Shown piece after piece: positions 259-21,516 of a stretch of 21,516 nt of DNA (position 1 is its first letter; each line of letters begins with the position of its first letter). Under the pieces are notes generated by a model. The model was not told the DNA's origin. It was given only the letters and a program-made list of their open reading frames with translations, and did not search any database. The DNA comes from a virus (lineage: Duplodnaviria; Heunggongvirae; Uroviricota; Caudoviricetes): IMG/VR virus record IMGVR_UViG_2718218434_000002, positions 1-21,516 of that record; one strand, written 5' to 3'. The position numbers were made by a program, and so were the translations under genes.

Positions 259-267
259 TCGTCTGAC

Positions 268-300
268 AAGCCCTCGCGTTGAGGGCTTTACTGATTTTTT
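268..300 (+). terminator. Putative rho-independent terminator after grxA
   Basis: Inverted repeat aagccctc / gagggctt with a 5-nt loop, followed a few nt later by a run of six T. It lies between the convergent grxA and ybjM genes. Confidence 0.45.
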
Positions 301-665: not shown

Positions 666-934
666 TCGTTCCTCCTGACACTGCGTCTATCGAACACATT
701 TTTCGCCAGTGTGGCGTTCAGTAAGATAAAGCCGCTTCGCATTCCATGCTAATATAGGCCAACGCAATTCATATAGCCGTTGATACCTAATGTGATTACA
801 CTAGTAAAATATATTGTTACTTTACTATCGTTTAGGTGCGCTGAATGAATCTGCGCCCTGAATTCTGGTAAAAAACATTATCGTAAATTACCATTTCTTT
901 CAACAGCTTACTAGTAAACAAGAAGTTAGCCTCC

Positions 935-2620: not shown

Positions 2621-2732
2621 AACTGAAGTTGCCCTGAAAATGAAATTTTTTTGCACAACCGCAGAACTTTTCCGCAGGGCATCAGTCTTAATTAGTGCCA
2701 CTGCTTTTCTTTGATGTCCCCATTTTGTGGAG

Positions 2733-2779
2733 CCCATCAACCCCGCCATTTCGGTTCAAGGTTGATGGGTTTTTTGTTG
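2733..2779 (+). terminator. Hairpin plus T-tract, candidate ybjL terminator near the host/prophage boundary
   Basis: 10-bp perfect stem cccatcaacc (2733-2742) / ggttgatggg (2760-2769) followed directly by ttttttgttg. Confidence 0.5.
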
Positions 2780-2855
2780 CCTGAAATTTATGCCGTTTAA
2801 AATCATGACGTTAGAAGCACTGTTTTTTAACGATGGCGACAAAATGGCGGCAGCG

Positions 2856-3074
2856 TCAAAGAGAGAGCGCCACCTGTCCTGATTTCATTGGATGCGGCTG
2901 AACCGGATTTGACTCTTTTGGCGTTGCAATCGAACGAACAAAAGTTTCATGGGTTACAAAAGTATGGCTGCAGTTAATATTCTGGCACTGGTTGTAACGC
3001 TCTTTGGTCAATGAAGATACCTGAAAACTGCTGCGAGTATGGGCGGCACTTCCACACAGTGGGCAAATCATCAT
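2856..3074 (-). CDS. ogr: Late-gene transcriptional activator Ogr (zinc finger), 72 aa
   Basis: Translation MMICPLCGSAAHTRSSF...KERYNQCQNINCSHTF has the Ogr/Delta Cys-x2-Cys-x22-Cys-x4-Cys finger and resembles P2 Ogr. Start chosen at the internal ATG (3074) preceded by GGGGAGAA, giving the 72-aa length. The ORF track extends 11 codons further upstream. Confidence 0.85.
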   Translation of the reverse strand: MMICPLCGSAAHTRSSFQVSSLTKERYNQCQNINCSHTFVTHETFVRSIATPKESNPVQPHPMKSGQVALSL

Positions 3075-3164
3075 TTTTCGAGTTCTCCCCATTTTTGCTA
3101 AATTCACAATAATGATACCGCATTATTCCATTTTGCAAACTTAAAAGTTCTCCATTGCGAAGAA

Positions 3165-4265
3165 TCATTCCATTTCGAAATCATCAATCCTCACTTCAAG
3201 CTCCAGACTGGTCGTAAAACCGTTATCCGAGCTGACGGTATGTGTCAGAGTCGTAATGGTCCATTCCGCATCATCTATCGGCTGTTTAAAACCACTGACC
3301 TTCACAGGCATTTCCGTGTAGAGATCTGCCCGCCCTTCCGCCAGTTGTAGCGAGAATGACGCAACGCCGCGTTGCAGGCGTTCCCACTGCATTTTCGCTG
3401 CCCGTTCGGCGTTGCTCCGGTTGGCATAAGTGCGATTAAGTACCAGCACGTTTTCATCCGTACCCACCAGGTAATCGCCCTGCTTCGCTTCCGGCTCTTT
3501 CTTCTGCTTCTTAGTTCTGCGCTTACGCTTCACCGTGGTGCTTTCTTTCTTCGCAGGTTCGCGGGTATGCAACCAGCTGGCAATTACGCCCGTGTAAGCT
3601 CCGCGATCTGCCAGGGTAAATCGGTGACTGTCGCCGTCCTTGCGTGTGATAGTGATCACTGGCAGTGGTTTACCAGTGGCGCTTTTGCCCTGTCCCTGCC
3701 GAATGAATAACAGATTGCCATTTTTCACCGACGCAATAGCACCGTACTGGCGCGCCAGCCGCATCAGAAAACTGCCGTCACTCTCATTAGTCTGGTCTAT
3801 ATGTTCCACGGGCTTATCCGACAGGTCTTTACCCAGTGCCATCTTCAGCTTGTGACGCGCGGCTATTTCCTTCACCACTTCCCCAACTGTGGTCTTGTGC
3901 CACGATTTTTCACGGCGGGTATTCAGCGTTTCCCGAAAATCAGCACTTCGCGCCCGGATAGTCAGGCGGTCCGGTGCACCAGTGTGTTCAATTTCATCCA
4001 CCGTGAATGCCCCTTTCGGGAAAAGCGGCTGCCCCTTCCACCCCAGCGCCAGCATAATGACCGCACCACGGCGCGGCAGCACGATTTTTCCGTCGGCGTC
4101 GTCCAGCTCCAGATCAAGCTGGTCTGCTTCAAAGCCCCGATTGTCCGTCAGCGTAAGCCCCATCAGGCGGTTTTCCAGCACAGTGGTGATATCCTTGCCT
4201 TCAATGCTGATGCTGAATGCCGGAGTTTTGTTGCCTTTGTTAAGCAGTTCAGAGCTGAAATTCAC
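3165..4265 (-). CDS. D: Phage tail protein D (P2 gpD family), 366 aa
   Basis: Position directly upstream of ogr and downstream of U, size, and recalled similarity to P2 gpD. GTG start overlapping the U stop (GTGA). Confidence 0.85.
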   Translation of the reverse strand: MNFSSELLNKGNKTPAFSISIEGKDITTVLENRLMGLTLTDNRGFEADQLDLELDDADGKIVLPRRGAVIMLALGWKGQPLFPKGAFTVDEIEHTGAPDRLTIRARSADFRETLNTRREKSWHKTTVGEVVKEIAARHKLKMALGKDLSDKPVEHIDQTNESDGSFLMRLARQYGAIASVKNGNLLFIRQGQGKSATGKPLPVITITRKDGDSHRFTLADRGAYTGVIASWLHTREPAKKESTTVKRKRRTKKQKKEPEAKQGDYLVGTDENVLVLNRTYANRSNAERAAKMQWERLQRGVASFSLQLAEGRADLYTEMPVKVSGFKQPIDDAEWTITTLTHTVSSDNGFTTSLELEVRIDDFEME

Positions 4266-4747
4266 GACAGCAGCCCTCCCACCGTTTTACTGATATCGCT
4301 TAATGCAGATGTTGCCGTGTCCTGCAGATTATTCAGCTGCGCACTGAGATCACCGAACATATCGGACAGGGATTCATCCACTCGTTTGAGCGACAGGGTG
4401 AACTCAATCCGGCGCGGCATACCGTCGCGGAAAAACTCCGTTTTAGTCTGATTCAGTCCCTCAATCACATACATGCCGTAAATCGTGCCGCTGCCTTCAA
4501 TCAGGGGCCATGCTTTTCCCTGTTCTGCCATCTGCTCCAGTGCCAGCAACGACAGCCTGCCGCCTGTAATCTCCGGCATAAGAACGCCAGAAAGCGTCAG
4601 CATGTCGTTATCCGGTCCCAGAAACTGCGTTGACGGTCGTCGGTTAACCCGGCTGTTAGCCGCATGTCGCCAGCTGCGCTGATACTGCAGTTCCTGATAC
4701 GGCACGGTGCGCAGCATAAACACGTACAATCCCAGCACCATCATCAT
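4262..4747 (-). CDS. U: Phage tail protein U (P2 gpU family), 161 aa
   Basis: 161-aa ORF between T and D with 4-bp overlaps on both sides. Order T-U-D-ogr is diagnostic of P2-like tails. Confidence 0.85.
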   Translation of the reverse strand: MMMVLGLYVFMLRTVPYQELQYQRSWRHAANSRVNRRPSTQFLGPDNDMLTLSGVLMPEITGGRLSLLALEQMAEQGKAWPLIEGSGTIYGMYVIEGLNQTKTEFFRDGMPRRIEFTLSLKRVDESLSDMFGDLSAQLNNLQDTATSALSDISKTVGGLLS

Positions 4748-6558
4748 GCGTCGTATCCCCCCTGATCGCTGTAGTTACTCCTGGCTTTTGCCTTCAGCCT
4801 GCGTTCACGTTCATCAAGCTGGCGGGCCACCTCCCGCGCAATATCCTGCGCACTTTGTCCTGACTGCGTCTGGATGATGATCTGCGTCGGTGCCTCAATC
4901 CTGTAAACGGGCGGCACAGTGGCTGCGCGACTCACAATTGCTTCTCCACCTTTCGCGGGAAGTGCCAAAGGGTGCAACGGTGGAAGCTCTGCTGGCGCGG
5001 CAGCAACGCCCATCATTCCGGCAACAACGGCAGCCAGTGCAGCTGTATTTCTCCGGCTGGTCACATTTGCCGGGCCGTTGACAATTTCAGGCCCGTTTTC
5101 ACCGACGATGCCAAACTGCCCGCGCGGAATATAGCCGCCGCTGTCATACATCCCCGCAAAGCCATATCCCCATGACGGCAAACCACCCGATGGCATCATC
5201 ACTTTACCGTCTGCATTCACCGTCGCAGGTTGCTGACGCGTCACGCTTTCCGGTAGTTTTGCCTTTGCGGCCTCTTTACTGACAATGCCGAGTTTTTCCA
5301 GCAACCAGGAAACGCCGGATTTCAGGGAGTCCAGCGGATGCATGACCATATTCAGCCCTTCCGCCAGTGCCTCCCCGAATCGTCGCCCCATTGCCGCTGC
5401 GCTCTGCAGTTCGGCAGAGGTCGACTTAACAGGCGTCAGCAGATCAGTAAACCAGCCCCACAGCGCCTGCACTTTGTCGCCAATCCACTGAAACACAGGC
5501 TTAAGTGGTTCGAATGCAGCACTGATGGGACCTGCCGCCGCTTTGAATCCTTCCACCACTCCACCGAGAAATGCGGTGATGGGTTGCCAGTATTTCCAGA
5601 CAACCAGCGCCACGCCTGCCAGTGCAGTAACCACAAGACCTATCGGACTGAGCAGAGCACCTAACAGACCAGATATGGCATACAGGGCAACGCGCAGCAT
5701 CGCCAGTGGACCAGATGCCAGTACTCGCAGCACCGTACCTGCGGCGGTCAGTCCACCGCGCAGTACCGCCAGAGGATTCATAAACATCACAGCAACAGCA
5801 CGTAAACCGGATAATCCAGACCGCAATAGTGCAACCGGCGCACCTGCTACAGTTTTCAGGACATTCCCCGTCAGTGATGCCGTGCGACGCAAAGACGACA
5901 ACGGCGCAGTAAGTAAACCCGCTGCGTTGCCCGATGAAGCAAGCCCGCGTCGCAGCAGTGCCAGTGGTGCGCCAGCCAGCCAGGACAACGCGCTGCTGGT
6001 TCGTGTTACTGCTGCCGTAACGGAAGGTAACGTTTTGATACCCAGCACAGAGAATCCCAGACGGATCACTGCCAGCGGCCCCAGCACTGCAGCCAGCGCC
6101 ACCGCTAAGGTGCCGAGGCCTACGGTAACCGCAGCCACAATAGCGGCTACTTTCATCAGTGTGCCTGTCAGTTCCGGGTTAGCTTCCACCCAGCGGCGCA
6201 ACGCCCCCGTGATGCTTTTCACCGTGTACAGAATATTCATCAGCGGCTGGCGCAGCGTTTCGCCCAGGCTGCTGAAGGTGTTCTGCGCTCCGGTTTTGAC
6301 CAGCAACCACTGAGCAGAAAGTGAGTCTTTGTTGATGTCGGATTCTTTCTGCATGGAACCGAGCGCATCATTGCCCGCTGTCAGTTTTAGCTGGCGCTGT
6401 AGTTCCGGCAGGTTGTTTGCCAGTTTCGCCGCGTCATCGCCAAACTCTTTACCAAACAACATGGTCATGGCAGACAGACGCTTGTCCTGCGGCAGTGCGT
6501 TCACCTTGAGAAGCTGGAAGAAATCTTCCATTCCTCCATGTTCAACTACCAGCGCCAC
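4744..6558 (-). pseudogene. T: Tail tape-measure protein T, N-terminally truncated fragment (about 604 codons retained)
   Basis: Long Ala/Gly/Leu-rich repetitive protein typical of tape-measure proteins, directly upstream of U. The reading frame has no real start and runs head-on into the 5' end of the terminase fragment. P2 gpT is about 815 aa from memory. Confidence 0.8.
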
Positions 6559-7875
6559 TGGTGGGAAGCCGGAAAAACCAACCGCATCCGCAACCTGCTG
6601 AAGTCACGCCAGATCGGCGCGACCTTTTACTTTGCCCGTGAAGCCCTGATTGACGCCCTGCTTACCGGACGTAACCAGATTTTCCTTTCCGCCAGTAAGG
6701 CACAGGCGCACGTCTTTAAGCAGTACATCATCGACTTCGCCAAAGAAGTGGATGTGGAACTGAAAGGCGATCCGATGGTGCTTCCTAACGGGGCCACGCT
6801 TTACTTCCTCGGCACCAATGCCCGCACGGCCCAGAGTTATCACGGCAACCTGTATCTGGATGAATATTTCTGGATACCGAAATTTCAGGAGCTACGCAAA
6901 GTGGCTTCCGGTATGGCTATTCACAAGAAATGGCGGCAGACCTATTTTTCCACACCATCCAGCCTGACCCACAGTGCTTATCCGTTCTGGTCCGGTGCGC
7001 TGTTCAACCGTGGACGCAACAAAGCCGACAAGGTGGACATTGATCTGTCCCACAGTAATCTGGCCCCCGGCCTGCTGTGCGCTGACGGGCAATACCGCCA
7101 GATAGTCACCGTGGAAGATGCGGTGCGCGGTGGCTGTAACCTGTTCGACCTTGACCAGTTGCGCATGGAATACAGCCCGGACGAATACCAGAACCTGCTG
7201 ATGTGCGAGTTTGTGGACGATCTCGCGTCCGTGTTCCCGCTCAGCGAACTACAGGCGTGCATGGTGGACAGCTGGGAAGTCTGGACCGACTTTCATGCAC
7301 TGGCGCTGCGCCCGTTTGGCTGGCGCGAAGTGTGGATCGGTTATGACCCGGCAAAAGGTACGCAGAACGGCGACAGCGCCGGATGCGTGGTGGTGGCACC
7401 GCCAGCCGTGCCGGGCGGTAAGTTCCGCATTCTTGAGCGTCACCAGTGGCGCGGGATGGACTTCCGCGCCCAGGCTGACGCCATCAAAAAACTGACTGAA
7501 CAGTACAACGTGACATACATCGGTATCGACTCAACCGGCGTCGGTCACGGGGTTTACGAGAACGTGAAAGCGTTTTTTCCTGCCGTCCGGGAGTTTGTCT
7601 ACAACCCCAACGTTAAAAATGCCCTGGTACTCAAGGCCTACGACATTATCAGTCACCGCCGTCTGGAGTTTGACGCCGGACACACCGACATAGCGCAGTC
7701 ATTTATGGCAATCCGTCGCGCCACCACCGCCAGCGGCAACCGCCCGACCTATGAAGCCAGCCGCAGCGAAGAAGCCAGCCATGCCGATCTGGCGTGGGCA
7801 ACAATGCACGCACTGTTTAACGAACCGCTGCAGGGCGAGTCCGCCAATACCAGCAATATTGTGGAGATTTTTTGA
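6538..7875 (+). pseudogene. P: Terminase large (ATPase) subunit P, N-terminally truncated fragment (about 445 codons retained)
   Basis: Contains the P-loop-like LLKSRQIGATFYF segment and overlaps the Q start (TGATG), as in the P2 P-Q operon. No promoter or upstream sequence; the frame collides with the T fragment on the opposite strand. P2 gpP is about 590 aa from memory. Confidence 0.8.
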
Positions 7876-8903
7876 TGGGAAAGAGTAAGAAGAACCGCGC
7901 TGTGTCGACGAACCAGATTCAGCACAAAAGCCAGACTTCAGCCGAAGCATTCAGCTTTGGCGATCCCGTTCCTGTTCTGGACCGCCGCGAACTGCTGGAC
8001 TATGTAGAATGCGTACAGACAGATCGCTGGTATGAGCCGCCAGTGAGTTTTGACGGACTGGCGCGAACCTTCCGCGCTGCCGTGCATCACAGTTCACCAA
8101 TTGCGGTGAAATGCAACATTCTGACCAGTACCTACATCCCTCACCCGCTTCTCAGCCAGCAGGCTTTTTCACGTTTTGTGCAGGACTATCTGGTATTTGG
8201 TAACGCTTACCTGGAGAAACGCACGAACCGGTTCGGTGAAGTTATCGCCCTTGAGCCTGCTCTGGCAAAATACACCCGACGTGGGTTAGACCTGGATACC
8301 TACTGGTTTGTGCAATACGATATGACAACCCAGCCGTATCAGTTCACGAAAGGCAGCATTTTTCATCTGATGGAACCGGACATCAACCAGGAGATCTACG
8401 GCCTGCCCGGCTATCTTTCTGCCATTCCATCCGCCCTGCTCAACGAGTCCGCCACGCTGTTCCGCCGTAAGTATTACATCAACGGCAGCCATGCAGGCTT
8501 CATCATGTACATGACCGACGCCGCGCAGAATCAGGAGGATGTGAACAACCTCCGCAACGCGATGAAAAGTGCCAAAGGTCCAGGCAACTTCCGCAACCTG
8601 TTTATGTACTCGCCTAACGGCAAAAAAGACGGGCTTCAGATCATCCCATTGTCAGAAGTCGCGGCGAAGGATGAATTTCTTAACATCAAGAACGTAAGTC
8701 GGGATGACATGATGGCGGCGCATCGTGTGCCGCCGCAGATGATGGGGATAATGCCAAACAATGTTGGGGGGTTTGGGGATGTGGAGAAGGCTAGTAAGGT
8801 TTTTGTGATAAATGAATTAATTCCTTTGCAAAAACGATTTATGGAAATAAACGCATGGCTCGGGGAGAAACTTATAGAATTTTCTCCATATGAGCTTAAC
8901 TAA
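7875..8903 (+). CDS. Q: Portal protein Q (P2 gpQ family), about 342 aa
   Basis: Directly downstream of P with a 1-nt stop/start overlap. Size matches P2 gpQ (344 aa from memory). The ORF track starts one codon earlier at TTG. Confidence 0.85.
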   Translation: MGKSKKNRAVSTNQIQHKSQTSAEAFSFGDPVPVLDRRELLDYVECVQTDRWYEPPVSFDGLARTFRAAVHHSSPIAVKCNILTSTYIPHPLLSQQAFSRFVQDYLVFGNAYLEKRTNRFGEVIALEPALAKYTRRGLDLDTYWFVQYDMTTQPYQFTKGSIFHLMEPDINQEIYGLPGYLSAIPSALLNESATLFRRKYYINGSHAGFIMYMTDAAQNQEDVNNLRNAMKSAKGPGNFRNLFMYSPNGKKDGLQIIPLSEVAAKDEFLNIKNVSRDDMMAAHRVPPQMMGIMPNNVGGFGDVEKASKVFVINELIPLQKRFMEINAWLGEKLIEFSPYELN

Positions 8904-8911
8904 AATATTAG

Positions 8912-8941
8912 TTGCCAGTACCGTATTGTTGCTACTGGCAA
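8912..8941. terminator. Hairpin between convergent Q and the 778-aa cargo gene (possible bidirectional terminator)
   Basis: Inverted repeat ttgccagta (8912-8920) / tactggcaa (8933-8941) in the 49-bp gap between two convergent stop codons. No strong T-tract. Confidence 0.35.
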
Positions 8942-8952
8942 TTGCAATAAAA

Positions 8953-11289
8953 TTACAAATATGTATTGCTATGTAGAGATGTGTTTATTCCATCTTCTAT
9001 CTCAATTTTTGACGAAGCATACTCATCATTCGCACTATCATCAATATCAAACTCATCTTGTAGATGAAGTGACTCATTTAACGGTTTATAAAACTCACCC
9101 ATCATCATTTTGTAATGGGCAGTATGCTCACTACACTCAAATATCTTCTGAAAAACAATTAAATATTTTTGCACAGACTCCGTATCTAAATTCATATAAA
9201 GATCATCACCTGCAAAATGAGAACCATCATTAATCCATGACACTAAAGATTTAAATATGATTTTTTCATCACCATAAAAATGACACTCAAGCTTCCTAAT
9301 ATCCATCCCTCCTAATATCTTAAAGTAATTCTCCAAAATCCTTCGCATTGTATTTTGTATAGTATTATTATTAATATCTGTTCTTCTCAATTCGCACCAG
9401 AGCAAATCATAAGACGTTTTTATTGGGTTTGATTCGCACTTTTCAAGATATGAGACCTTCCCTTTTTTCCTTACAATCCAAAAAGTCTCCTCTTTCATTG
9501 CTTGATTACCGGATCTTTTAGTATTAAAAGTCAACTCTTTATGAAAATAAATATTATGCGTAAGGAATATAATTTGCTTAATATTTCCTTCATCCTTACG
9601 AACATCCTCCATTAAATCTTTAATCAACGAACTTACAATAAACAGAATATCACTATCTAAACTTGAAATTGGATCATCAAATACTACAACACGATCATCT
9701 AAAACACCTGATGCATTATCACTCCCTCTAACAAGACTATAAAAATACAAAAAAGTGATAAATGTCTTTTCTCCCTCGCTAAGAGTTGTACGAGCATTAT
9801 CTCCACTATCTCTCACTATCATATAATGCTTTTTATCTTCGGAGGGTTTTAAGTAAAAATTTTTGAAGCCATAAGAATCCAGAATCTTGTTAATTTTTGT
9901 AATAGTTGGAAGAGTACTGGTTTTATTAGACTCAATTGCCTCAATAGCCGAAGCATTTAACATTAACTTCTTTTTGTCTTCCTCTAACCCAGATTTAAGT
10001 CCTTGTAACCTCCTACTAAATTTATCAGATTCGCTACGGTAAGAAGTTATTTCAGACTTTAACTCCACCTTTACGATATATGCCCATATCTGATTAGAAA
10101 GATTACTAACCTCTACCTTTCTATTACTGTGTATTTTGTTATTATTATCTATCAATAGATTTGAATCATTCAAAAAAGAAATAAAATCATCAACAACTTC
10201 ACTTAAGTCACTAAAATGAACTGATTCACTTAAAAAATTGCGTTTGTTTTTTGCCAATTCAAAATTCTTGTTTAATTCAGATAATACTATCTTAGCCTTA
10301 TCCTCAAATACTTCATAATTTATGAATGGAGATTTAATCGCCCTTATATCATCTATCGCCTGCAAGATATTATTAAGTTGATGTTCATATTGTAAAACCA
10401 ATGCATCGATTTCTCTTTTTTTTAACTCGTATGTTTTATCAAAATATGATGATAGATTATCAAATATATTATCATTTACATCCTGTTGGCAGAATGGGCA
10501 CTTGGGATTAGATTTACTGAAATATGTTAAACCTTCCTTAACCCAATCACTGTTATTGAGCATTGTAATTAAGTCTGAAACACTAACGTCTTTTTTCCCT
10601 AGAATACGCTCACTCCAAATCTCCCTACTCAAAATATCATCTATCCCATTGAAGGATGGAATTGTAATTGATACATGTGATGTCAATTCAGTAGAAAAAA
10701 CAATTTTTGCTTTCTCAATTAGCTCTGCTATTGAGCAAACTTCTGATGTGTTATTTTCATACTCAGCCAACACTCTAGCTTTAAATTTTTCACTACTATT
10801 CCTTAATCCCTCAAAAGCCTTTGAGAACACATTATCATGTTTTATTTTTTGCTTCCAACATGAATCTTTAAAAGATTTTTCATGGTCTTCGATTTGTTTA
10901 ACAACGCCTAATATATTATCACCACCATCTATTAGCTTTTCCTTTGCTATAATAGATTCTATTAGCTTATTTTTTTCTTCTTCAAGAGATATTAGTTTCT
11001 CTTCATCCTCCTTAAGATCGCTACCAAGGGTAAATACACCTTTAATTTTATCTTGACTAAAATTTCTTTCAACAAAATCTTTATTATATACGTAGCTTAT
11101 TAAAGATATATTATTTTTCCATTTAATCGGACATGTTGGATATTGTTCAGGGTCATTAATAATTTTACTTATAGTTGTTTTACCTGCACCATTAGCTCCA
11201 TATAAATAGTTAAATTTAGAAAGCCCATGTAAAAGCTGAGTAGGGCCATTATATGAGCCTACTTTGTCAATAACTACCTCTTCAATCAT
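8953..11289 (-). CDS. Stand-alone ABC-type ATPase with coiled-coil CxxC hook and C-terminal nuclease-like domain (AAA_13 / RloC-PrrC-like candidate), 778 aa
   Basis: Motifs read from the translation: Walker A GANGAGKTT (aa 31-39, nt 11173-11199), CPFC near the middle of a long charged heptad-like insert (nt about 10486-10500), ABC signature LSEGEK, Walker B VVVFDDP, H-loop LTHN, then a roughly 200-aa tail containing RRILE and a later GSH. The gene is visibly AT-rich compared with flanking phage genes. Confidence 0.6.
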   Translation of the reverse strand: MIEEVVIDKVGSYNGPTQLLHGLSKFNYLYGANGAGKTTISKIINDPEQYPTCPIKWKNNISLISYVYNKDFVERNFSQDKIKGVFTLGSDLKEDEEKLISLEEEKNKLIESIIAKEKLIDGGDNILGVVKQIEDHEKSFKDSCWKQKIKHDNVFSKAFEGLRNSSEKFKARVLAEYENNTSEVCSIAELIEKAKIVFSTELTSHVSITIPSFNGIDDILSREIWSERILGKKDVSVSDLITMLNNSDWVKEGLTYFSKSNPKCPFCQQDVNDNIFDNLSSYFDKTYELKKREIDALVLQYEHQLNNILQAIDDIRAIKSPFINYEVFEDKAKIVLSELNKNFELAKNKRNFLSESVHFSDLSEVVDDFISFLNDSNLLIDNNNKIHSNRKVEVSNLSNQIWAYIVKVELKSEITSYRSESDKFSRRLQGLKSGLEEDKKKLMLNASAIEAIESNKTSTLPTITKINKILDSYGFKNFYLKPSEDKKHYMIVRDSGDNARTTLSEGEKTFITFLYFYSLVRGSDNASGVLDDRVVVFDDPISSLDSDILFIVSSLIKDLMEDVRKDEGNIKQIIFLTHNIYFHKELTFNTKRSGNQAMKEETFWIVRKKGKVSYLEKCESNPIKTSYDLLWCELRRTDINNNTIQNTMRRILENYFKILGGMDIRKLECHFYGDEKIIFKSLVSWINDGSHFAGDDLYMNLDTESVQKYLIVFQKIFECSEHTAHYKMMMGEFYKPLNESLHLQDEFDIDDSANDEYASSKIEIEDGINTSLHSNTYL

Positions 11290-11422
11290 CCTCTAATCCT
11301 CAAAAAACAGATTAATCCTATCAAATCAATGATAATAGAAGACATTACTTACCTAATTACAAGGTGATCATTTATACAGCTGTGAATAAATCAGGCTAAT
11401 CATCTATTTGTCATAACGCGCG

Positions 11423-11441
11423 CTCGTATCCCCGCCACGCC
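11423..11441 (-). other. cos-like cohesive-end sequence (P2/186 type)
   Basis: The minus strand reads GGCGTGGCGGGGATACGAG. The first 13 nt match the 186 cohesive end (GGCGTGGCGGGGAAAGCAT) as recalled. Orientation and position (Q side to the left, A side to the right) fit the P2 left end. Confidence 0.45.
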
Positions 11442-11712
11442 TGCCCGCTTTATATAGTGGTTTTCATGCACCTGCATGACATAAGCAAAAGCCCGCCATA
11501 CCTAGCAGGCCCCAACTAGAGCGATCCTTAAACGATCATGCGGATTCATGCAGTATAGACATGCAGTAGTTACGCCAAACCGTGTAGCGAGGCCACCTGC
11601 TAAAAATGTTCACGGAGTAACATTTGATCTCCACTGCAAAAAATGAAACTTTCGCTTTCACCAAATATAACAAGAGGTAATCTTTGGTGTTTTACACAGC
11701 AAACGGTGAGCC

Positions 11713-12294: not shown

Positions 12295-12296
12295 TG

Positions 12297-12854: not shown

Positions 12855-12943
12855 AATTCTTTGATGATAACACTAACGCCTCGCCCTGCTCGTTGTTCAA
12901 CCTTGCTGGCTTCAGAATCAAGTACTGATGCCAGCAACGTTTC

Positions 12944-13177
12944 TTAATGCAGCCAGCTGTCGTCTTCCCACACCTTCTGCATAATTTTCATCACTTGTTT
13001 TCTTTCTTCGTCCAGTTGCAGTCCGGTCAGTTCCACACCGTTAGAGCTACCTTTTCGGATACGAATTACCGTTTTGGGATACAGGGGGCGCAGATTGCGG
13101 TAAAGCTCGGATTCAAGGGCGTCCAGGGTAGACTGGCTAATCTTCTGCTCTTTATCGATCATTATTTCAATGCGCAT
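12944..13177 (-). CDS. DinI-family protein (77 aa), equivalent to the C-terminal part of 186 Tum
   Basis: MRIEIMIDKEQKISQSTLDALESEL...KVWEDDSWLH aligns by eye with E. coli DinI (MRIEVTIAK...). Internal ATG at 13177 with GAGGTGA upstream chosen as the start. The ORF track's longer frame overlaps the upstream gene. Confidence 0.8.
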   Translation of the reverse strand: MRIEIMIDKEQKISQSTLDALESELYRNLRPLYPKTVIRIRKGSSNGVELTGLQLDEERKQVMKIMQKVWEDDSWLH

Positions 13178-13187
13178 AAAAGTCACC

Positions 13188-13376
13188 TCAACTGATGACA
13201 TCCATTGAGCGGTTGTATTCGTGAGTTCTGATTTTTGCCATGAGTTCATCAGTCAATTCAGAAACCCACTGCAGGGCCAGCCCCTTCTCTTCATCACTAC
13301 ACTCACTAGCCGCTACAAGCTTAAGAAAAAAATCAATGCGCTGGAGCTTCAAAGACTCCAAAAAATAGTCCTGCAT
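13188..13376 (-). CDS. Small acidic protein (62 aa), candidate Tum-like antirepressor N-terminal module
   Basis: ATG with a strong AGGAGG RBS, immediately downstream of a LexA box and 10 nt upstream of the dinI-like gene. Function inferred from the arrangement only. Confidence 0.5.
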   Translation of the reverse strand: MQDYFLESLKLQRIDFFLKLVAASECSDEEKGLALQWVSELTDELMAKIRTHEYNRSMDVIS

Positions 13377-13418
13377 CTTTCCTCCTATGACACCAAAGCA
13401 ATACTGTATACATAACCA

Positions 13419-13434
13419 CTGTTTATATTTACAG
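13419..13434. promoter_or_regulatory. LexA (SOS) box CTGTTTATATTTACAG
   Basis: Perfect CTGT-N8-ACAG palindrome with an AT-rich spacer, about 45 bp upstream of the 62-aa ORF start on the minus strand. An overlapping partial site tactgtatac lies just to the left. Confidence 0.7.
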
Positions 13435-13528
13435 TATATAATAATCTTACTGATGTAAAACGTTTTTTTACGCTCATCAGCCTGATATGCCTGGTATTAT
13501 TAAGAGCACGAATTGTTAACCCGCGTAA

Positions 13529-15901
13529 TTAATACAGGTTTCGCCACTTATCATCTTCCTGCAAACGCTGGTTCCGATAGAAGATACGCAGGCCTGCTCC
13601 TGACGGAATACTGCCTCCGCGAAGCAGTAAATCGACCTCTTTCTCGCTGCCATCAAATCCCCTGGACTTCAGTTCATACACGAGCTGCAGTCGCTGATGG
13701 TCTGTAATTCGCTGTTTGTAGTCTTTACGCCGTTTCGGTTTCACCAGGCGTAACCTTGCTGCCAGTTCCCGGCGCTCTTTTTTGCTCATACTGTGCAGGT
13801 AATCGTGCAACTCCTTGTCATCCATGCGGGTGATATCCGTTCTGGTATCTCCATCAGCTGATTTGTCTTTCCCTTGTTGGTACAAATTTTCAGCAAGGGG
13901 ACAGTTATTGCCACGAGTCCAAGGGGCGCAAGCGCCCTGGCCGGCTGCCGCCTCCTGAACATCAACGGCCTTACGAACCATTTTCCACTTCACGGCATGA
14001 GTGCAGATCTTGCCCTCTGCAATAGGTGACCAGATGCCATAAATACGAATGCCGTGATCGCCATAGGCGGTCGGCTCTTCGTTGATTTCATAAGCGGTTC
14101 TGATGAGGTGATATTTGCGGGGAACCAGTACGCCGCCCTGCTTCATGATGTAGGTGGCAAAACAACCAGCATCAGCAGCAGCCAGGATGGCATCAAGGCG
14201 CGGGTTATCCAGTACCGGCGCACCTGCTTTTTTGTCCCCCTGTTGCCTTGCCGCCTGACCAGCCAGCAATCGCAGTTCACGGTAAGCCTGACGCCCCGGA
14301 ATGCCAAAGAAGCGGAATTGCTGAACACGATGCAGAGACGCCCAGGCATTAACGTATTCAGCATTATCACGCAGGGATTTCCCCGTTTCCTTGCTGATCT
14401 CGCCAGCCAGACCACGCCCGTCAATGTTCTTACTGATGTATTTCGCGATGTAGCTTGTTGGCGTACCTTTGCGCGGGTTAATCAACTCAGACTTAAAGCG
14501 CGGCCCAGTGTTATTGCCCAGTTCCTCGCGGTCTTCACGGATGGCAAACTTACGCAGTAATGCAGTGATGGCGCGGCGGTCTTTTTTGCGCATAAAACAC
14601 AACAGGTGCCAGTGAACTGTACCGTCATGATGCGGCTCAGCCACCCGCACGCCATACCACCGCAATCCGGCTTTGTGCATCGCCTTACGAAATGCAGCAA
14701 ACATGCCGACCAGATAATCACTGCTTTGTCTTACCGTCGCATTTGTCCAAGTTGGGTTGGGCCTGCCATTATTTAGCGTGGAATGGAAACGTGACGGACA
14801 GGTGATGGTGTAGAAAACGGCGCAGTCACCGCGCATTTCCGCGATAAGCTCCAGGCCTTTAACACAGGCCATCATCTCATTGCGGCGATGCGCAGGGTTG
14901 CTGCTGCTGGCGTTTACCACGTCTTCCATATCCAGCGTGTCGCCGTCTTCGTTCACCAGTTCATGAGAACGAAAAAACTCCAGCGACTTACGGCGCTGCT
15001 CACGTTTATGCATCACGGCTTCATAGCTGACATAGGGAGATGCTTTTTTGCTGACCAGGCAGACAGCACGCAACTGCTCTTCCCGCCATTCGCAACGCAT
15101 CTTCCATAATTTCCGGTACCACCAGTCAGCGCACAACATACGCGCCAGCGAACCCGGAATGAGTTCATAGGGCACGGGTTTACGGCGGTTTCTTTTCCGG
15201 CGGAGTTGCTCAAACGCAGGCGGGATGACATCCAGACGCAGGGTTTCCGCTGCCACCTTTTCCCATGTCTTGCGGATTTCTTCTGGCTTAACGTCATCGG
15301 TGACATACAAATCGCCACAAGCTGCATCAAGGCACATGCTCATATGCGCAGCTACCAGGGTGGACAGGCGTTTCACCTGATCCTGACTCATTTCAGGCAG
15401 GATCAGCAGGCCGTCCAGCCCTTCATGGCTTGCCATAAAGCGAAAAGAAGTGGATAGCTGACAGTCGCGTACATGCTCCAGCCGTTCCAGACATGGCTTA
15501 ATCGTCTCACGCAAATAGCGGGAATAAGCCTTTGGCCTGCCCAGGCTGCTGAAGTATTCAATACGTTGCATCAGCGGCTTGCTGATATGGGAAGGCTGGG
15601 CATTGACGTCCGCCAGAATGACCATATCTGGATTAAAACGCTGCTGCTCATGCGCCAGCTTTGCCCGACTAATGAGCTTATCCTGCTCCATTTCGCGCTG
15701 GACAGGATCACGGGATTCATTAAAGAAATAACGCTCCCAGACCTGATCACTCAGTGCCTCGCGGCGCAGCTGTTCCTGCTCGTTATCGGCAGCGTACAGA
15801 GCGATCAGGTTTGAAAGCGCAGAAACTGAAGATTGCTCTTCTGTCTCTACGTAAGGATTGATTGCTTTTTTCTCAGCATTCCAGGAATAGCTGTAGTTCA
15901 T
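13529..15901 (-). CDS. A: Replication initiation protein A (rolling-circle HUH endonuclease, P2 gpA family), about 790 aa
   Basis: HUH motif in [15 protein letters not shown] and the downstream [12 protein letters not shown] segment match P2 gpA from memory. Start set at the ATG that overlaps the stop of the upstream gene (TAATG). The ORF track extends 17 codons further. Confidence 0.9.
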
Positions 15902-16731
15902 TACGCAATCTCCAGTTCGAGCTGTGAAGGCTGCAAACCATTCGACAGCCAATCAGAAACTGAAGGTGGGCGAACAGCTTCAATTGCACCTTTTAAAATT
16001 GCGCAACGGTTTTTCAGAATGACAGCTTTCAGCTCCTTTTCCGTCAGATTGCGCGAATACTCAGCCTCCTGAATAGCCCGCGTCAGCTCAGGATATTTGC
16101 TATTAAATTTGGGGACATTGCAGGCAAGATTTGTACTGTCGGCAGTCGCCAGTGGGTAATTTCCCAACACACGACCGTCAAGCATGCGCAAACCATGAAC
16201 AGCTGTTTTGAAATTGTGTCGGCAATAAATTGCTTCAAAAGCGTCCTGCATACGACGATGCCAGTGCGCAGTTCTGATAGCCGCATATTCACCAGACGAT
16301 CCAAAGCAGACACGAGGCCATTCACGACATAGCTCGATAAGCCGATCGATTGACTCGTGCAGATGCCAGACGGGAGTTGCCTTCCCGTAGAACATTTTCG
16401 GAACTTCGTTTATCAGGGCATCATTGTCACGTTCACCTCCGTCCACAACATCAGGAATGACAAAAAAAGCGACCTTAGGATGGTGGTAATAGTTCAGGAG
16501 CCATTTATAAAAATCACTCCAGTTAATTTTTAGCCCACGCACCCATGCAGAAAATGCGCCGTTATCAATGCCGACGACCTGAGCGTGCTGAATGGACGCC
16601 GCAATCTGATCTGGTCGTACATAGGAGACGAAAGCGCCAGCTCCGCTCACCGCAATACGATGAACGTCGCCAGCACTTCCCCAGACAGGCGTCCCATGGA
16701 AATGATGAATTCCGTGGTGCATTTCTTTCAC
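15901..16731 (-). CDS. Hypothetical protein (276 aa) coupled to the Dam methylase; possible TIM-barrel TGT/DpdA-like DNA-modification enzyme
   Basis: Translationally coupled to dam upstream (GTGA overlap) and to A downstream. Motif order GIDNGAFS ... FFVIPDVV ... CFGSSGEY ... ATADSTN loosely parallels the tRNA-guanine transglycosylase motifs TDSGGFQ ... IFDEC ... LMGVG ... MFDCV. The fold assignment is tentative. Confidence 0.7.
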
Positions 16732-17582
16732 ACTTGCACCCCGAAAATAACAGTAGAGTCACGTCCCCTACTAAAATCGGCACTAAACCAATTAGCAGAT
16801 TTAGTGGCAATCATCTCTGTTGCAAATTTTCCCTCCCCCGCTGCAACGCCGATGCTGCGTTTCGCCCTGATGTAGTGGTGAGTGAAATTACGATAAAGGG
16901 ACCGGGTCAAAGACGTGTTACTGTTAGAAACAATGACCGGATGTCCTTCTGATGACCGATGTTCAAGAATGGATGCCAGGTGATACTGATCATCTTCAGT
17001 GAAACCATCAGTGTGATAGCCGGAAAACGTACCGTCATAAGGCGGATCGCAATACACCACATCCCCCACCTTCAACATCGCCAGCGTTTCATCAAAGCTG
17101 GCGCAGATAAACGTTGCCCGCTGGGCTTTCTCTGCAAATGCGCGAATTTCTTTTTCAGGGAAATACGGATTTTTATAATTACCGTAGGGAATGTTGAAAT
17201 GCCCGCTCTTGTTATAGCGACATAAACCACGGTAACCGTGACGATTGAGATACAGGAAATATACCGCTTTCATGAAATCAGTAATTTCAGTGGAGTAATT
17301 AAACTCCTGCCTTATGTTGTAATAAGCCACCTCCCTGTTTGCTTCCTCAAATAAAGCTCTGGCACGAGATATAAACGCCTCACAATCAGCAGCAACCTTT
17401 TTATAGAGGTTGATTAAATCAGGATTAATATCCGCAACAAGATAGCTGGGATAATCCGTCTCCATCATCACTGCACAGGAACCCGCGAAAGGTTCAACCA
17501 GTCGCGGGCCAGCAGGAAGATACTTTTTCAGTTCGGACATTATGGCGGTTTTATTTCCTGCCCATTTCAGGATGGTGCTCAT
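16728..17582 (-). CDS. dam: DNA adenine methyltransferase (Dam family, probably GATC-specific), 284 aa
   Basis: Motifs KWAGNK, EPFAGS (AdoMet binding) and CDPPY (catalytic). ATG at 17582 overlaps the stop of the upstream TraR-like gene (ATGA). The ORF track extends 20 codons upstream. Confidence 0.9.
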
Positions 17583-17806
17583 ACAGCACCTCCGTTGTAA
17601 TGTTTGCCTTTCAGCTCTGCGATTTCCTGACAGGTAATGCAAAGCTGCACACCCGGAATGGCACGGCGGCGTGCTGGCGGAATTGGCGCTTCACACTCAA
17701 CGCAAAGCACGCGGGACACGCCCGGCGTTTTGGCACGGGCAGCACGGATATGGCGTTGGCGTTCTTCTTCAACGCGCTGCTGTACGAGATCCATTGCATC
17801 AGCCAT
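17579..17806 (-). CDS. TraR/DksA-family C4 zinc-finger protein, 75 aa
   Basis: CVEC-x17-CITC finger. Small basic protein in the early operon, as with the P2 orf82 class from memory. Confidence 0.8.
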   Translation of the reverse strand: MADAMDLVQQRVEEERQRHIRAARAKTPGVSRVLCVECEAPIPPARRRAIPGVQLCITCQEIAELKGKHYNGGAV

Positions 17807-18039
17807 CAGTGGATCTCCTGCGCTTCGTTCTGGATTGCTTCAGCAGTCACACGCAGCAGTTCTGCCGCTTCGACGTGGTTTAGCTGGCGGGAGGTGATAT
17901 GACACGCCAGGCTATCGAGGCGAGCAGCCATTGCTTCAGCCCTTGCCCGGCGTTCTTCCAGACGAGCCTCTGTCAGTAAAAGATTAAGACCTGCATCATC
18001 CGGTCCGGTTTTGGTCGTGAGGGTTTCAATATTACGCAT
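17806..18039 (-). CDS. Hypothetical early protein (77 aa)
   Basis: ATG at 18039 with an AGGAGA RBS. Stop overlaps the TraR-like start (ATGA). No recognisable motif. Confidence 0.55.
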   Translation of the reverse strand: MRNIETLTTKTGPDDAGLNLLLTEARLEERRARAEAMAARLDSLACHITSRQLNHVEAAELLRVTAEAIQNEAQEIH

Positions 18040-18106
18040 AAGCAATTCTCCTGAATTTAGATAAAGGGATGCCCGGCGGGTTTACGCCATTAATTTCATT
18101 AGTTGG

Positions 18107-18448
18107 TTAATTCGGCATGGTTAGCCGTCTGGGAAATAAGCTCACCACTGCACGAAAATGATTCATTGCTTTAATCAACTCCCGCTTTTCGTCAGTGGTC
18201 AGCTCATTAATGCTGATGCTATGACGTTCAGCTGGAATTTTTGCCATAAAGAATATGGCAGCCAGTGCCCGTTTATTTTGTTCATTATTGATATCCCGAG
18301 GATCACGCATATCTTTAATAAACCGCTCAAGCTCTGACTCAATATTCAAACCAAAAACTTTCGCCCTTAACTCCGCAATATGATTAAGTCCATTCAGGCG
18401 TTCACCGGGTCTTAATGGAACAGTCGCCGCAGCGCCTTCAATAGCCAT
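18107..18448 (-). CDS. Hypothetical early protein (113 aa)
   Basis: ATG at 18448 preceded by GGGGGAA. In operon position between cII and the replication genes. Confidence 0.55.
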   Translation of the reverse strand: MAIEGAAATVPLRPGERLNGLNHIAELRAKVFGLNIESELERFIKDMRDPRDINNEQNKRALAAIFFMAKIPAERHSISINELTTDEKRELIKAMNHFRAVVSLFPRRLTMPN

Positions 18449-18612
18449 TTGTTCCCCCGTTTTTTCGTAGATAGTTCTGCCAGCAATTCATCTTGTGAAC
18501 GGCACGGATGCCAGCGTTTACCATCCTCACCCATGATCCAGCCGTGACCGTAGTGCATTGCCGGACTTTGTTTTACCAGCAGCGATGCAAATGATGGTTC
18601 TTTCGTCAGCAT
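18412..18612 (-). CDS. Hypothetical small early protein (66 aa)
   Basis: ATG at 18612 with a GAGGTG RBS, 7 nt after the cII stop. The ORF track's longer GTG-initiated frame would overlap cII. Confidence 0.45.
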   Translation of the reverse strand: MLTKEPSFASLLVKQSPAMHYGHGWIMGEDGKRWHPCRSQDELLAELSTKKRGNKWLLKALRRLFH

Positions 18613-18619
18613 AAGCACC

Positions 18620-19129
18620 TCACAGCAAACCGAATGAAGCACCGAGGCCAGTCACGGTATCAACTGCACTCGCCATCGCAGGATTAGCCTGTAAACGGGC
18701 CTGCAATGAAACAGCAGCCAGCGCCATCAGTCGTGTAACAGAGTTAATGCTGCTGATCGCATCACGACGGCCTGCACTGGTTTTTACATCGCCAGAAACC
18801 GCACCTGCCGCGACACGCCCTATCTCTGCAGTTGCACTCATGACGTAATGCGGCAGTTTCTCTTTTGCCACCTCATTAATCGGTACACATGGCAGGCAGT
18901 GAATCTGTGCCAGAAAGCCATCTACCAGCGTTGAATCTTCAGTCAGATCGGTAAGCAACCAGATTTCTGGTGCGGTTAATAAATGAGGTTGAGCTGGGTT
19001 CAGCTTGTTCCGCAGAATCTGCACATTCATGCCTGCACGTTCTGCCAGTTGCACTAGGTTGTGGCGCAATGCGAATGCACGACAGGCTTCATCAAAATGT
19101 GGATGTTTGGAAACTTGGTAATCAAACAT
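18620..19129 (-). CDS. cII: CII-type lysogeny-establishment activator (186 CII family), 169 aa
   Basis: [24 protein letters not shown]...GLGASFGLL closely resembles phage 186 CII as recalled, with the same 169-aa length when started at the ATG at 19129. Confidence 0.8.
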
Positions 19130-19161
19130 GGTCAATGCCTCTGATGTATTTCAGAATCGAA

Positions 19162-19383
19162 CTAATTAAGGTTTAGATTGCATTCTGAAAGCGCATCAAC
19201 GGTCATGGCTGCTATGTTGATCATCACTTTTTCACGTTTTTTATCTTTGCGCAGACGGTGACGGATAAGGCGTCCGTCAGCCAACATGTCATTGATGGTA
19301 TCGATGGACAGCCCTGTCAGCTCGCTATAGCGTTCAATAGTCACATGAGGCGTGGTAAGAGTGATTGAAATGTTAGGTCTCAT
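19162..19383 (-). CDS. apl: Apl/Cox-like excisionase and transcriptional regulator, 73 aa
   Basis: Small HTH protein ([23 protein letters not shown]) that is first in the lytic operon, divergent from cI, as for 186 apl or P2 cox. Confidence 0.65.
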
Positions 19384-19508
19384 GATGCAACATTCCTCGT
19401 TTAATGATGATTAATCAGGACGAATACGGATCGTTTGTATTTTGTGAACACCATAAACATACGATCGCACAGTGAAATCGTCAAGATAAAAGTTCACTTG
19501 GAGTGACC
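19384..19508. promoter_or_regulatory. Immunity switch region between apl and cI (promoters and operators)
   Basis: 125-bp AT-rich intergenic region between divergently oriented apl and cI. Individual operators were not resolved. Confidence 0.5.
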
Positions 19509-20078
19509 ATGAATTTGGAGAAAGGCGGACGAGGCGCTATAGAGCGCATGGTAGAAGCTTATGGATTCAAAACTCGACAGGCGTTGTGCGATCATTTAGG
19601 AATCTCTAAAAGTACACTCGCCACACGCTACATGCGTGACTCATTCCCAGCAGAATGGGTAATCCAGTGCGCCCTTGAAACGGGCACCTCGCTTAATTGG
19701 CTCACAACCGGACATGGTTCAAAGCAAACTTCAGGTAATACAAATACTATGGAAGTTGCTAAATATGTATTATCTGATGGTGCCTTGCGTGAAGACGGTT
19801 TTTATATTTTTGATAAGGGATTTCTACCCTCTACGTTTAAAAAACCTTTTGTCATCACAGATAACAATTCTGAATTTATTTGTGATAAAGAATTTGATGA
19901 TATACGTGACGGTAAATGGGTAATAAGTATTGATGGCGAAATAACAATCCGCGACATTACTCGTTTACCCGGTGGAAGAATCTTCGTTGAAGGTGGAAAC
20001 AGAGCCTTCGAGTGCAAGATAGAAGATGTTGAAATAATTGGGAAAATTATAAGTTTAACAATTAAGTACGTTAGGTAA
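19509..20078 (+). CDS. cI: CI immunity repressor (186 CI-like), about 189 aa
   Basis: N-terminal HTH (QALCDHLGISKSTLATRYMRD). Size and position upstream of int match the 186 cI-int lysogenic operon. ATG at 19509 with GGAG 6 nt upstream. Confidence 0.8.
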   Translation: MNLEKGGRGAIERMVEAYGFKTRQALCDHLGISKSTLATRYMRDSFPAEWVIQCALETGTSLNWLTTGHGSKQTSGNTNTMEVAKYVLSDGALREDGFYIFDKGFLPSTFKKPFVITDNNSEFICDKEFDDIRDGKWVISIDGEITIRDITRLPGGRIFVEGGNRAFECKIEDVEIIGKIISLTIKYVR

Positions 20079-20093
20079 TACCGGGAGGAAACT

Positions 20094-20285
20094 ATGCTTG
20101 GTAAGGTATTTTTTGTGGTTTTATCATGCTCTTTGTTATTAAACCCACTAACTACCTATGCTAAAAATTATCCTTGTTCTGGGAAAAAGGGAGGTGTCTC
20201 TCACTGTACCTCCGATGGAAAGTTCGTTTGCAATGATGGAACTATTAGTAAATCAAAAAAAATCTGTACTAAAAACTCGCGATAA
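20094..20285 (+). CDS. Small secreted Cys-rich basic peptide (63-aa precursor with predicted signal peptide)
   Basis: Strong RBS GGGAGGA 5 nt upstream. N-terminus [23 protein letters not shown] looks like an SPase I signal peptide. The predicted mature part (about 40 aa) has 4 Cys and many Lys. AT-rich insert between cI and int. Confidence 0.55.
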
Positions 20286-20463
20286 ATTTTGCTTTTATAT
20301 CTGCGCCTAATATAACAATGAGCCGCAGGCTAACCGCAAAAGTCACATAGCAAAAAATAGCCAACTTCATTATGGCTTCAGTGAGATGTATGGTCACAGG
20401 ATTTCATACATTGACACTGGTTATACATACAGTAAAAATGCTCTCTATTGGAGGGCATTTTTT

Positions 20464-21516
20464 ATGGCAGTACGAAAACTCACCACAGGAAAATGGCTTT
20501 GCGAATGTTACCCCGCCGGACGTAGTGGGCGTCGTGTGCGTAAACAATTCGCCACCAAAGGCGAAGCTCTGGCTTTTGAGCGCCATACGATGGAAGAAAC
20601 CGAAGCAAAGCCCTGGCTGGGAGAATCAGTGGATCGTCGAACACTGAAAGACGTGGTTGAGCTATGGTTCAAACTACATGGTAAATCTCTAACCGCTGGG
20701 CAGCATGTCTATGATAAATTGCTGTTGATGGTTGACGCTCTGGGCAATCCCCTTGCAACCGATCTCACCTCTAAAATGTTTGCCCACTATCGAGATAAAC
20801 GCCTGACAGGTGAGATCTACTTCAGCGAGAAATGGAAGAAAGGAGCAAGCCCGGTCACCATTAACCTGGAGCAAAGCTATCTAAGTAGTGTTTTTAGCGA
20901 ACTATCCCGCCTGGGCGAATGGTCGTATCCAAACCCACTGGAGAACATGCGAAAATTCACCATCGCAGAAAAAGAGATGGCATGGCTTACCCATGAGCAG
21001 ATTGTTGAACTGCTGGCTGATTGCAAACGTCAGGACCCAATTCTGGCACTGGTAGTCAAGATATGCTTAAGCACAGGCGCACGCTGGCGAGAAGCAATAA
21101 ACCTTACCCGATCACAGGTGACTAAATACCGAATTACCTTTGTAAGAACGAAGGGGAAGAAAAACAGAAGCATCCCTATCAGTAAAGAGCTTTATGAAGA
21201 GATCATGGCGCTTGATGGGTTCAATTTCTTCACAGACTGCTATTTTCAATTTTTATCCGTGATGGAAAAAACGTCAATCGTGCTCCCTCGCGGTCAACTG
21301 ACACACGTTCTGCGCCATACGTTTGCGGCGCATTTCATGATGTCGGGTGGAAATATCCTTGCTTTGCAAAAAATCCTCGGACATCACGATATAAAAATGA
21401 CTATGCGTTACGCTCATCTGGCACCGGATCATCTGGAAACGGCGCTCCGTTTCAATCCTCTGGCAACGCTGCCAAGTGGCGACAAAGTGGCGGCAGCGGT
21501 TGGCATTACCCCGTAA
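20464..21516 (+). CDS. int: Tyrosine integrase (P2/186 Int family), 350 aa
   Basis: C-terminal catalytic region with R...HxxR...Y context (LTHVLRHTFAAHFMMSGG...MTMRYAHL). Start at the ATG at 20464 preceded by GGAGGG. The ORF track starts 26 codons earlier. Confidence 0.9.
   Translation: MAVRKLTTGKWLCECYPAGRSGRRVRKQFATKGEALAFERHTMEETEAKPWLGESVDRRTLKDVVELWFKLHGKSLTAGQHVYDKLLLMVDALGNPLATDLTSKMFAHYRDKRLTGEIYFSEKWKKGASPVTINLEQSYLSSVFSELSRLGEWSYPNPLENMRKFTIAEKEMAWLTHEQIVELLADCKRQDPILALVVKICLSTGARWREAINLTRSQVTKYRITFVRTKGKKNRSIPISKELYEEIMALDGFNFFTDCYFQFLSVMEKTSIVLPRGQLTHVLRHTFAAHFMMSGGNILALQKILGHHDIKMTMRYAHLAPDHLETALRFNPLATLPSGDKVAAAVGITP

Follow-up and report, generated by a model that had tools for sequence, protein, structure and literature searches.

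A cryptic remnant of phage P2, ogrK-yegZ, is present in E. coli K-12, and it is far more eroded than the element described here. Defective P2-like elements in which near-identical defence genes have been retained were reported recently (NAR 2026, PMC13586616). Among deposited phage genomes, the closest to our element is that of Klebsiella phage 4LV2017 (NC_047818, Peduoviridae, Elveevirus), which is about 95% identical in P-Q and the early region but differs in having a complete 33.5-kb genome, retron St85 as cargo and another host genus. In this study, a stretch of 21,516 nucleotides (the window) was analyzed, in which a truncated tape-measure gene (T') and a truncated large terminase gene ('P) run into each other. 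With a probability of about 0.93, this site is the scar of a single 16,011-bp deletion of the late genes by illegitimate recombination at a 2-bp microhomology, which left a defective prophage of 18.8 kb.

The left 2.6 kb of the window correspond to E. coli grxA-ybjM-ybjL, followed by rybB and then by a P2/186-like (Peduoviridae) prophage, and the right end of the window is the stop codon of the integrase gene. A candidate 14-bp att core (ATGGGTTTTTTGTT) was found at 2765-2778, where it forms a direct repeat with positions 40084-40097 of the intact reference locus (L003, described below), and in prophage-free E. coli genomes the homology to the window stops at about 2791 (query position 312). 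The gene order is that of the prophage in E. coli DETEC-P829 and of phage 4LV2017, with the late genes in the Peduoviridae arrangement ogr-D-U-T ... P-Q and with T, U and D on the strand opposite to P and Q (Pfam). A GpA-type rolling-circle endonuclease, a 186-type CI/CII/Fil set and a tyrosine integrase are all present. The sequence thus places the prophage among the P2/186-like Peduoviridae, close to Elveevirus, at the 3' end of rybB between ybjL and rcdA. The first-pass annotation had called it P2-like, which holds for the family but not for the regulatory region, whose CI, CII and Fil are 186-like. The features of the window are as follows:

2700-2778, plus strand: rybB sRNA gene (Rfam RybB, 105 bits)
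2700..2791, plus strand: left prophage boundary with rybB (rybB match, direct repeat and comparison with prophage-free genomes)
2856-3107 (ORF span; gene 2856-3074), minus strand: ogr (Pfam Ogr_Delta; protein identical to the intact copy)
3165-4265, minus strand: D, a retained late-control/tail gene (Pfam Phage_GPD; protein identical to the intact copy)
4262-4747, minus strand: U, a retained tail gene (Pfam Phage_P2_GpU; protein identical to the intact copy)
4744..6507, minus strand: T', the 3' 1764 nt of the tape-measure gene (PHROG and alignment to DETEC-P829)
6506..6507, no strand: deletion junction (blastn against L003 and base-by-base three-way alignment)
6506..7875, plus strand: 'P, the 3' 1370 nt of the 1767-nt large terminase gene (Pfam and alignment)
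7872-8903 (ORF; gene 7875..8903), plus strand: Q, portal, intact (Pfam Phage_portal)
8953..11289, minus strand: cargo gene 1, a 778-aa AAA_13 ATPase, intact (PADLOC candidate defence family PDC-S06, E = 8e-266)
11417..11565, no strand: candidate cos region, a 149-bp block conserved among relatives
11713-12294, plus strand: ComF/PRTase-like cargo gene, intact, with weak ShosT/PsyrT matches
12297-12854, plus strand: GTP-binding-domain-like cargo gene, intact
12944..21516, no strand: early, replication, immunity and integration module, all open (DinI-like, A, Dam, TraR-like, Fil, CII, CI, int)
13529-15952 (ORF; gene to 15901): A, the GpA replication endonuclease (Phage_GPA, E = 6.5e-128)
19509-20078: CI, annotated in the 99.96%-identical reference and open in the window
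20464-21516: int, the tyrosine integrase, annotated in the 99.96%-identical reference and open in the window

An intact counterpart of this prophage allowed the breakpoints to be mapped to the base. In E. coli DETEC-P829, the tape-measure gene is 99.9% identical to the T part of the window, and a terminase gene about 16 kb away on the same chromosome is 100% identical to its P part. Such near-identity to annotated genomes is sufficient to establish what the genes are. The DETEC-P829 locus (NZ_CP116106.1, 3131.2-3166.1 kb; L003) holds a complete 186/P2-like prophage between ybjL and rcdA, which carries all late genes, including a T of 3078 nt (1025 aa) and a P of 1767 nt (588 aa). Blastn of the window against L003 returned exactly two blocks, collinear and in one orientation. 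Window positions 1-6507 correspond to L003 2484-8990 (99.80%, ungapped) and positions 6506-21516 to L003 25000-40009 (99.96%), and the 16,011 bp of the intact prophage between them are absent (prophage size 34,836 bp in the intact copy and 18,825 bp in the window). The join, from the middle of T to codon 133 of P, reads ...GTTCACC-TT-GAGAAGC... in the three-way alignment, where TT is common to both parental flanks (2-bp microhomology) and where no filler DNA, insertion sequence, terminal repeat or recombinase site was found at 6506/6507. The flanks are therefore those of a simple deletion, being collinear with one reference in one orientation, free of filler and within the range of 0-5 bp of shared sequence.

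The first-pass annotation had proposed an alignment to an intact relative with a search for microhomology, and it is this comparison that yielded the mapped breakpoints and the shared TT. It had placed the junction at 6530-6565; the junction itself was confirmed, but its true position is 6506/6507, about 25-30 bp leftward, and the interval first flagged is the overlap zone of two mechanical ORFs. The large internal deletion that it described was also found, with 16,011 bp lost relative to the intact sibling prophage and every head, lysis, baseplate, fibre, sheath and tube gene gone. Capsid, lysis, baseplate, fibre, sheath and tube genes do separate T from P, as it had stated, but not over about 18 kb, since the gene starts are 14.3 kb apart in this lineage.

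Near the junction, two ORFs meet head to head with an overlap of 21 bp: a minus-strand ORF of 604 aa at 4744-6558 and a plus-strand ORF of 445 aa at 6538-7875. The former aligns with tape-measure PHROG profiles, roughly from their midpoints to their ends. T' retains the 3' 1764 of 3078 nt (587 codons and the stop), the 5' 1314 nt being deleted; its open frame reads on into antisense-P sequence as far as 6558/6603, and antisense P makes up the opening 51 nt (6508-6558) of the T-frame ORF. On the other side, 'P lacks the 5' 397 of 1767 nt, with the breakpoint at P nt 397/398. Its Terminase_6N and Terminase_6C domains are complete (Pfam), and the 133 amino acids that were lost hold Terminase_5 (PF06056), a gpP-like HTH domain. 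The first in-frame start of 'P is the ATG at 6538, which opens the 445-aa ORF and has no Shine-Dalgarno sequence. A scan of 5900-7100 for sigma-70 consensus sites found no sigma-70-like promoter upstream of either truncated ORF, in agreement with the earlier statement that the junction has none, and the sole promoter-like site in this region (6920-6948) lies within 'P. The relic genes T', U, D, 'P and Q are probably silent, and given that the promoter scan covered sigma-70 sites only, weak or read-through transcription of them may still occur.

The truncation of the two genes is clear from their relatives. T is also 3078 nt long in Klebsiella phage 4LV2017, and the full-length members of the P cluster, among those listed, have 587-588 aa in E. 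coli, Salmonella, Klebsiella and Citrobacter. Because T and P are full-length in these relatives, the short genes of the window are not natural variants. The earlier reading that both genes are shortened at the N-terminus is thus borne out (1025 aa for full-length T, 587-588 aa for P), and full-length homologues starting naturally at these positions, which would have spoken against it, were not seen among the relatives listed.

According to the annotation of DETEC-P829, 25 genes lie wholly within the missing block. They comprise the late genes E/E', tube (FII), sheath (FI), H, I, J, W, V, S, R, X, L, M, N and O, the lysis genes (holin, lysozyme, lysA-like, lysB and lysC), and also a Din-type invertase with its invertible tail-fibre cassettes and the tail-fibre assembly genes; capsid, scaffold, small terminase and baseplate are among the functions lost. 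The window does not have the complete head, tail and lysis module of the family (O N M L X Y K lysA/B R S V W J I H G FI FII E T). With 25 genes absent and T and P truncated, the element is therefore a defective derivative and not a functional member of the Peduoviridae. Its gene content strongly indicates that it is incapable of capsid and tail assembly, DNA packaging and cell lysis. P2 has four late promoters, upstream of P, O, V and FI. By analogy with P2, all four should have been removed by the deletion, and Q, although intact, should have lost its late promoter.

The remaining part of the prophage has hardly changed. The 21 other retained prophage genes are all open and differ from the intact copy by two amino acids in total, which agrees with the first-pass description of intact regulatory, replication, integration and cargo modules, and the retained prophage DNA shows seven substitutions and one intergenic 1-nt indel relative to the intact copy. 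Since no secondary decay has accumulated (7 SNPs, 1 indel, retained genes open), the deletion is evidently recent. Judging from these genes, immunity and cargo expression should persist in the element, and excision and replication may remain possible.

One spontaneous internal deletion of 16,011 bp in a 34.8-kb P2/186-like prophage most probably left this scar, and T and P, being divergently oriented, were joined head to head by it. With no more than the TT as a 2-bp microhomology, the join points to a RecA-independent illegitimate recombination, for example by end joining or replication slippage; this class is the best reading, and the sequence does not distinguish one pathway from another. 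Homologous or site-specific recombination is not indicated. The longest common substring of the breakpoint flanks is 6 nt, a length reached by about 50% of random prophage 60-mer pairs, and the flank comparison revealed no direct or inverted homology above chance at the breakpoints. That the deletion was made by a site-specific or transposition enzyme, either a Din-family invertase acting on quasi-sites or an IS-adjacent deletion, is hardly credible. The shared TT/AA is indeed the central crossover dinucleotide of the invertase sites in this prophage, and two of the related deletions (L002 and L005) share an identical breakpoint in P, which hints at recombination-prone positions in the 5' part of the gene. 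However, their breakpoint lies at about nt 309 of P and that of the window at nt 397/398, the join carries no IS sequence, terminal repeat or filler, and the breakpoint flanks fit invertase half-sites no better than random ones. The invertase sites that the prophage itself carries have the canonical form (TTCTCCCAAACC-AA-GG...) and score 24, while the two breakpoints score 7 and 8 of 24 and random AA/TT positions have a median of 7. With breakpoint scores at the random level, an origin from invertase quasi-sites was rejected.

The window junction is known from one assembly. Among 5426 complete E. coli genomes, no match spanned it (161-nt query), every match stopping or starting at 6506/6507; the exact 40-nt junction had no match in GTDB representative genomes and none in metagenome contigs; and the chimeric T' protein was absent from a collection of 15 billion proteins by exact lookup with 11 alternative starts (the first residue was set to M for the three longest GTG/TTG-start versions). 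The 445-aa 'P ORF does occur in the protein collection, but it comes from other events and gives the junction no support: from a complex M'-'P deletion (L004), a tail-fibre-assembly'-'P junction (L005), a 19-nt insertion in the 5' part of P (L006), and a contig whose start resembles a Nextera adapter (L007). That neither the exact junction nor the chimeric T' ORF turned up elsewhere in the public sequences searched would suit an assembly artefact, that is, a chimeric join or collapse in a genome that really holds the intact 34.8-kb prophage. Such an artefact is nevertheless very unlikely, given that there is no repeat on which to collapse (2 bp shared, flank similarity at chance), that both flanks belong to one prophage in the order and orientation of a simple deletion, and that comparable deletions are present in finished, independently assembled genomes. 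The probability is negligible that the window instead holds a natural compact element, such as a satellite or island in which these are the regular starts of the T-like and P-like genes. Its set of candidate cos, ogr, replication genes and integrase looks superficially like that of a helper-dependent element, but every retained base aligns with an intact prophage of the phage type (99.8-99.96% identity), both genes are interrupted within a domain at their 5' ends with the loss of Terminase_5, and the named terminase homologues listed have 587-588 aa. In addition, no satellite-specific marker (P4-like or PICI-like) was found among the Pfam, PHROG and PADLOC matches of the window, and, as its genes share 99.8-100% identity with their counterparts in an intact prophage of the phage type, it does not classify as a satellite.

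The rybB attachment site is often occupied, as the ybjL/rybB-ogr junction is present in 1104 of the 5426 complete E. coli genomes. At this same site, E. coli GF31 carries a deletion that joins T' to the region upstream of P, and E. coli WCHEC020031 carries a D'-'P deletion. The breakpoints of both differ from those of the window, so the deletions in these relatives are independent events. The D'-'P junction of WCHEC020031 was detected in 106 of the 5426 complete genomes, and the allele of the window in the window only. The GF31 and D'-'P prophages have lost the same morphogenesis and lysis block and kept Q, cargo, early genes and ogr, but their cargo is unlike that of the window (retron St85; a P-loop NTPase with an HsdR-N-like protein). 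From the contigs of Logan run assemblies, the complex M'-'P deletion and the tail-fibre-assembly'-'P junction were added. All these deletion relatives keep Q, cargo, the 149-bp block and at least the start of the early region, while the cargo itself varies. At least five distinct junctions have been seen in this prophage family, and because the queries that retrieved the relatives were built around the 5' part of P, the clustering of breakpoints there is partly an ascertainment bias.

The 149-bp block at 11417-11565 separates the cargo loci, with cargo gene 1 lying between Q and the block and the ComF-like pair to its right, and conservation among relatives that differ in cargo is limited to it (84-88%). 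Read as the reverse complement, 11427-11441 is GGCGTGGCGGGGATA, which we take to resemble the cohesive-end sequence of P2/186, and we infer that the block is cos. A search with a 19-nt P2/186 cos consensus, allowing up to 3 mismatches, was negative for both the window and the intact reference, and GGCGTGGCGGGGATA is a diverged candidate. A cos-like 12-nt sequence upstream of P in the intact reference (GGCGGGGAAAGC) was discarded, its match being at chance level (23 of 100 shuffles).

It is possible to regard the 18.8-kb derivative as a helper-dependent, satellite-like and mobilisable defence island that is packaged by a Peduoviridae phage, the repeated loss of the late block then reflecting selection for domesticated defence cargo rather than neutral decay, but we consider this improbable. 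The idea draws on the retention of the candidate cos, ogr, the A replication system, the integrase and immunity, and on the at least five distinct junctions, one of them in 106 of the 1104 occupied sites; the helper would be either co-resident or superinfecting. A dimer of the derivative would measure about 37.7 kb, roughly 108% of the parental genome.

For annotation, a scar of this kind means that the prophage should be marked as defective, that T and P should be given as pseudogenes joined at 6506/6507, and that the 445-aa and 604-aa ORFs should not be called genes. The window represents ordinary prophage decay, a phenomenon already known, and its value is that of a clean, very young case of the first step in prophage domestication, in which one deletion strips the host-killing and particle genes and spares immunity, integration, replication, the candidate cos and two defence-type cargo loci. 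Together with the other deletion alleles at the rybB site, it could be used to study, at the population level, how P2-like prophages turn into fixed defence islands, the idea of such a transition having already been published (PMC13586616). Compared with the known systems, the element is nearest to the DETEC-P829 prophage, which shares its site, its cargo (AAA_13/PDC-S06 and the ComF-like pair) and its early and late genes at 99.8-99.96% over the retained DNA, but which differs in having the full 16,011-bp late block and full-length T and P. Compared with the defective P2-like elements already described (PMC13586616), it stands out as very young, having undergone one deletion and no decay beyond that.

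The insertion site of the prophage is the 3' end of rybB, an sRNA gene (window 2700-2791; Rfam RybB, 105 bits), where a candidate 14-bp att core, ATGGGTTTTTTGTT, coincides with the RybB terminator tail and recurs at the right end of the prophage in L003, the intact sibling at the same site in E. coli DETEC-P829. The ybjL/rybB-ogr junction at the rybB site was found in 1104 of 5426 complete E. coli genomes. Comparison of the window with the DETEC-P829 locus revealed 11 differences in about 2780 positions of the chromosomal flank (window 1-2778; 0.4%), whereas the retained prophage (window 2779-21516) had only 7 differing positions and one indel over about 18.7 kb (0.04%). These differences suggest that each strain acquired this phage in a recent, independent event, or that the phage was exchanged between them, rather than being inherited from an old common ancestor.

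The intact relative L003 also encodes a Din-family invertase, and canonical 26-bp crossover sites (L003 13249-13275 and 15098-15124) bracket a 1.8-kb invertible tail-fibre segment; both sites lie in the DNA deleted from the window. With this invertase and its sites around the tail-fibre segment, the parental phage could therefore switch host range.

Truncation of the large terminase gene P was also detected in other sequences. In two defective relatives, the WCHEC020031 prophage (L002, 7913-7931) and a Logan contig (L005, 636-638), the right breakpoint in P is the same to within one nucleotide and corresponds to L003 24911/24912, at about nucleotide 309 of P. The left partners differ, being D in L002 and a tail-fibre assembly gene in L005, and the P-Q regions of the two are about 3% diverged. 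The shared breakpoint could represent a hotspot, or it could reflect common ancestry followed by recombination, or the Logan contig could be chimeric. In three further sequences, a 445-aa ORF of 5'-truncated P identical to that of the window arises by different routes. L004 carries a complex deletion joining M to P (3300-3320) with about 20 nt unaligned at the join, and about 14 nt across this unaligned stretch match sequence upstream of P. In L006, P is split by a 19-nt insertion in its 5' region. The truncated end of P in L007 is a read-end artefact, since positions 1-23 at the start of this contig resemble Nextera adapter sequence.

The window also contains two cargo loci near the putative cos site and one further gene with a database match:

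8953-11289, minus strand, cargo AAA_13 ATPase of 778 aa, between the portal gene Q and the putative cos
11713-12854, plus strand, second cargo locus of two genes, right of the putative cos
15901-16722, minus strand, 273-aa protein flanked by the replication gene A and Dam

The 273-aa protein is annotated as hypothetical in RefSeq and had no match in a Pfam scan; it matches PHROG 887, annotated as queuine tRNA-ribosyltransferase (E = 2.4e-96). For the second cargo locus, the first product (193 aa) is ComF/phosphoribosyltransferase-like with weak matches to ShosT/PsyrT (E about 1e-8), and the second (185 aa) weakly matches a PHROG "GTP-binding domain" family. Neither protein had a match in a Pfam scan. 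Together the two genes may form an uncharacterised module of toxin or defence type. The 778-aa ATPase matches PDC-S06, a candidate single-gene defence family in PADLOC (E = 8e-266), and shows lesser similarity to LmuB, PrrC and AriA.
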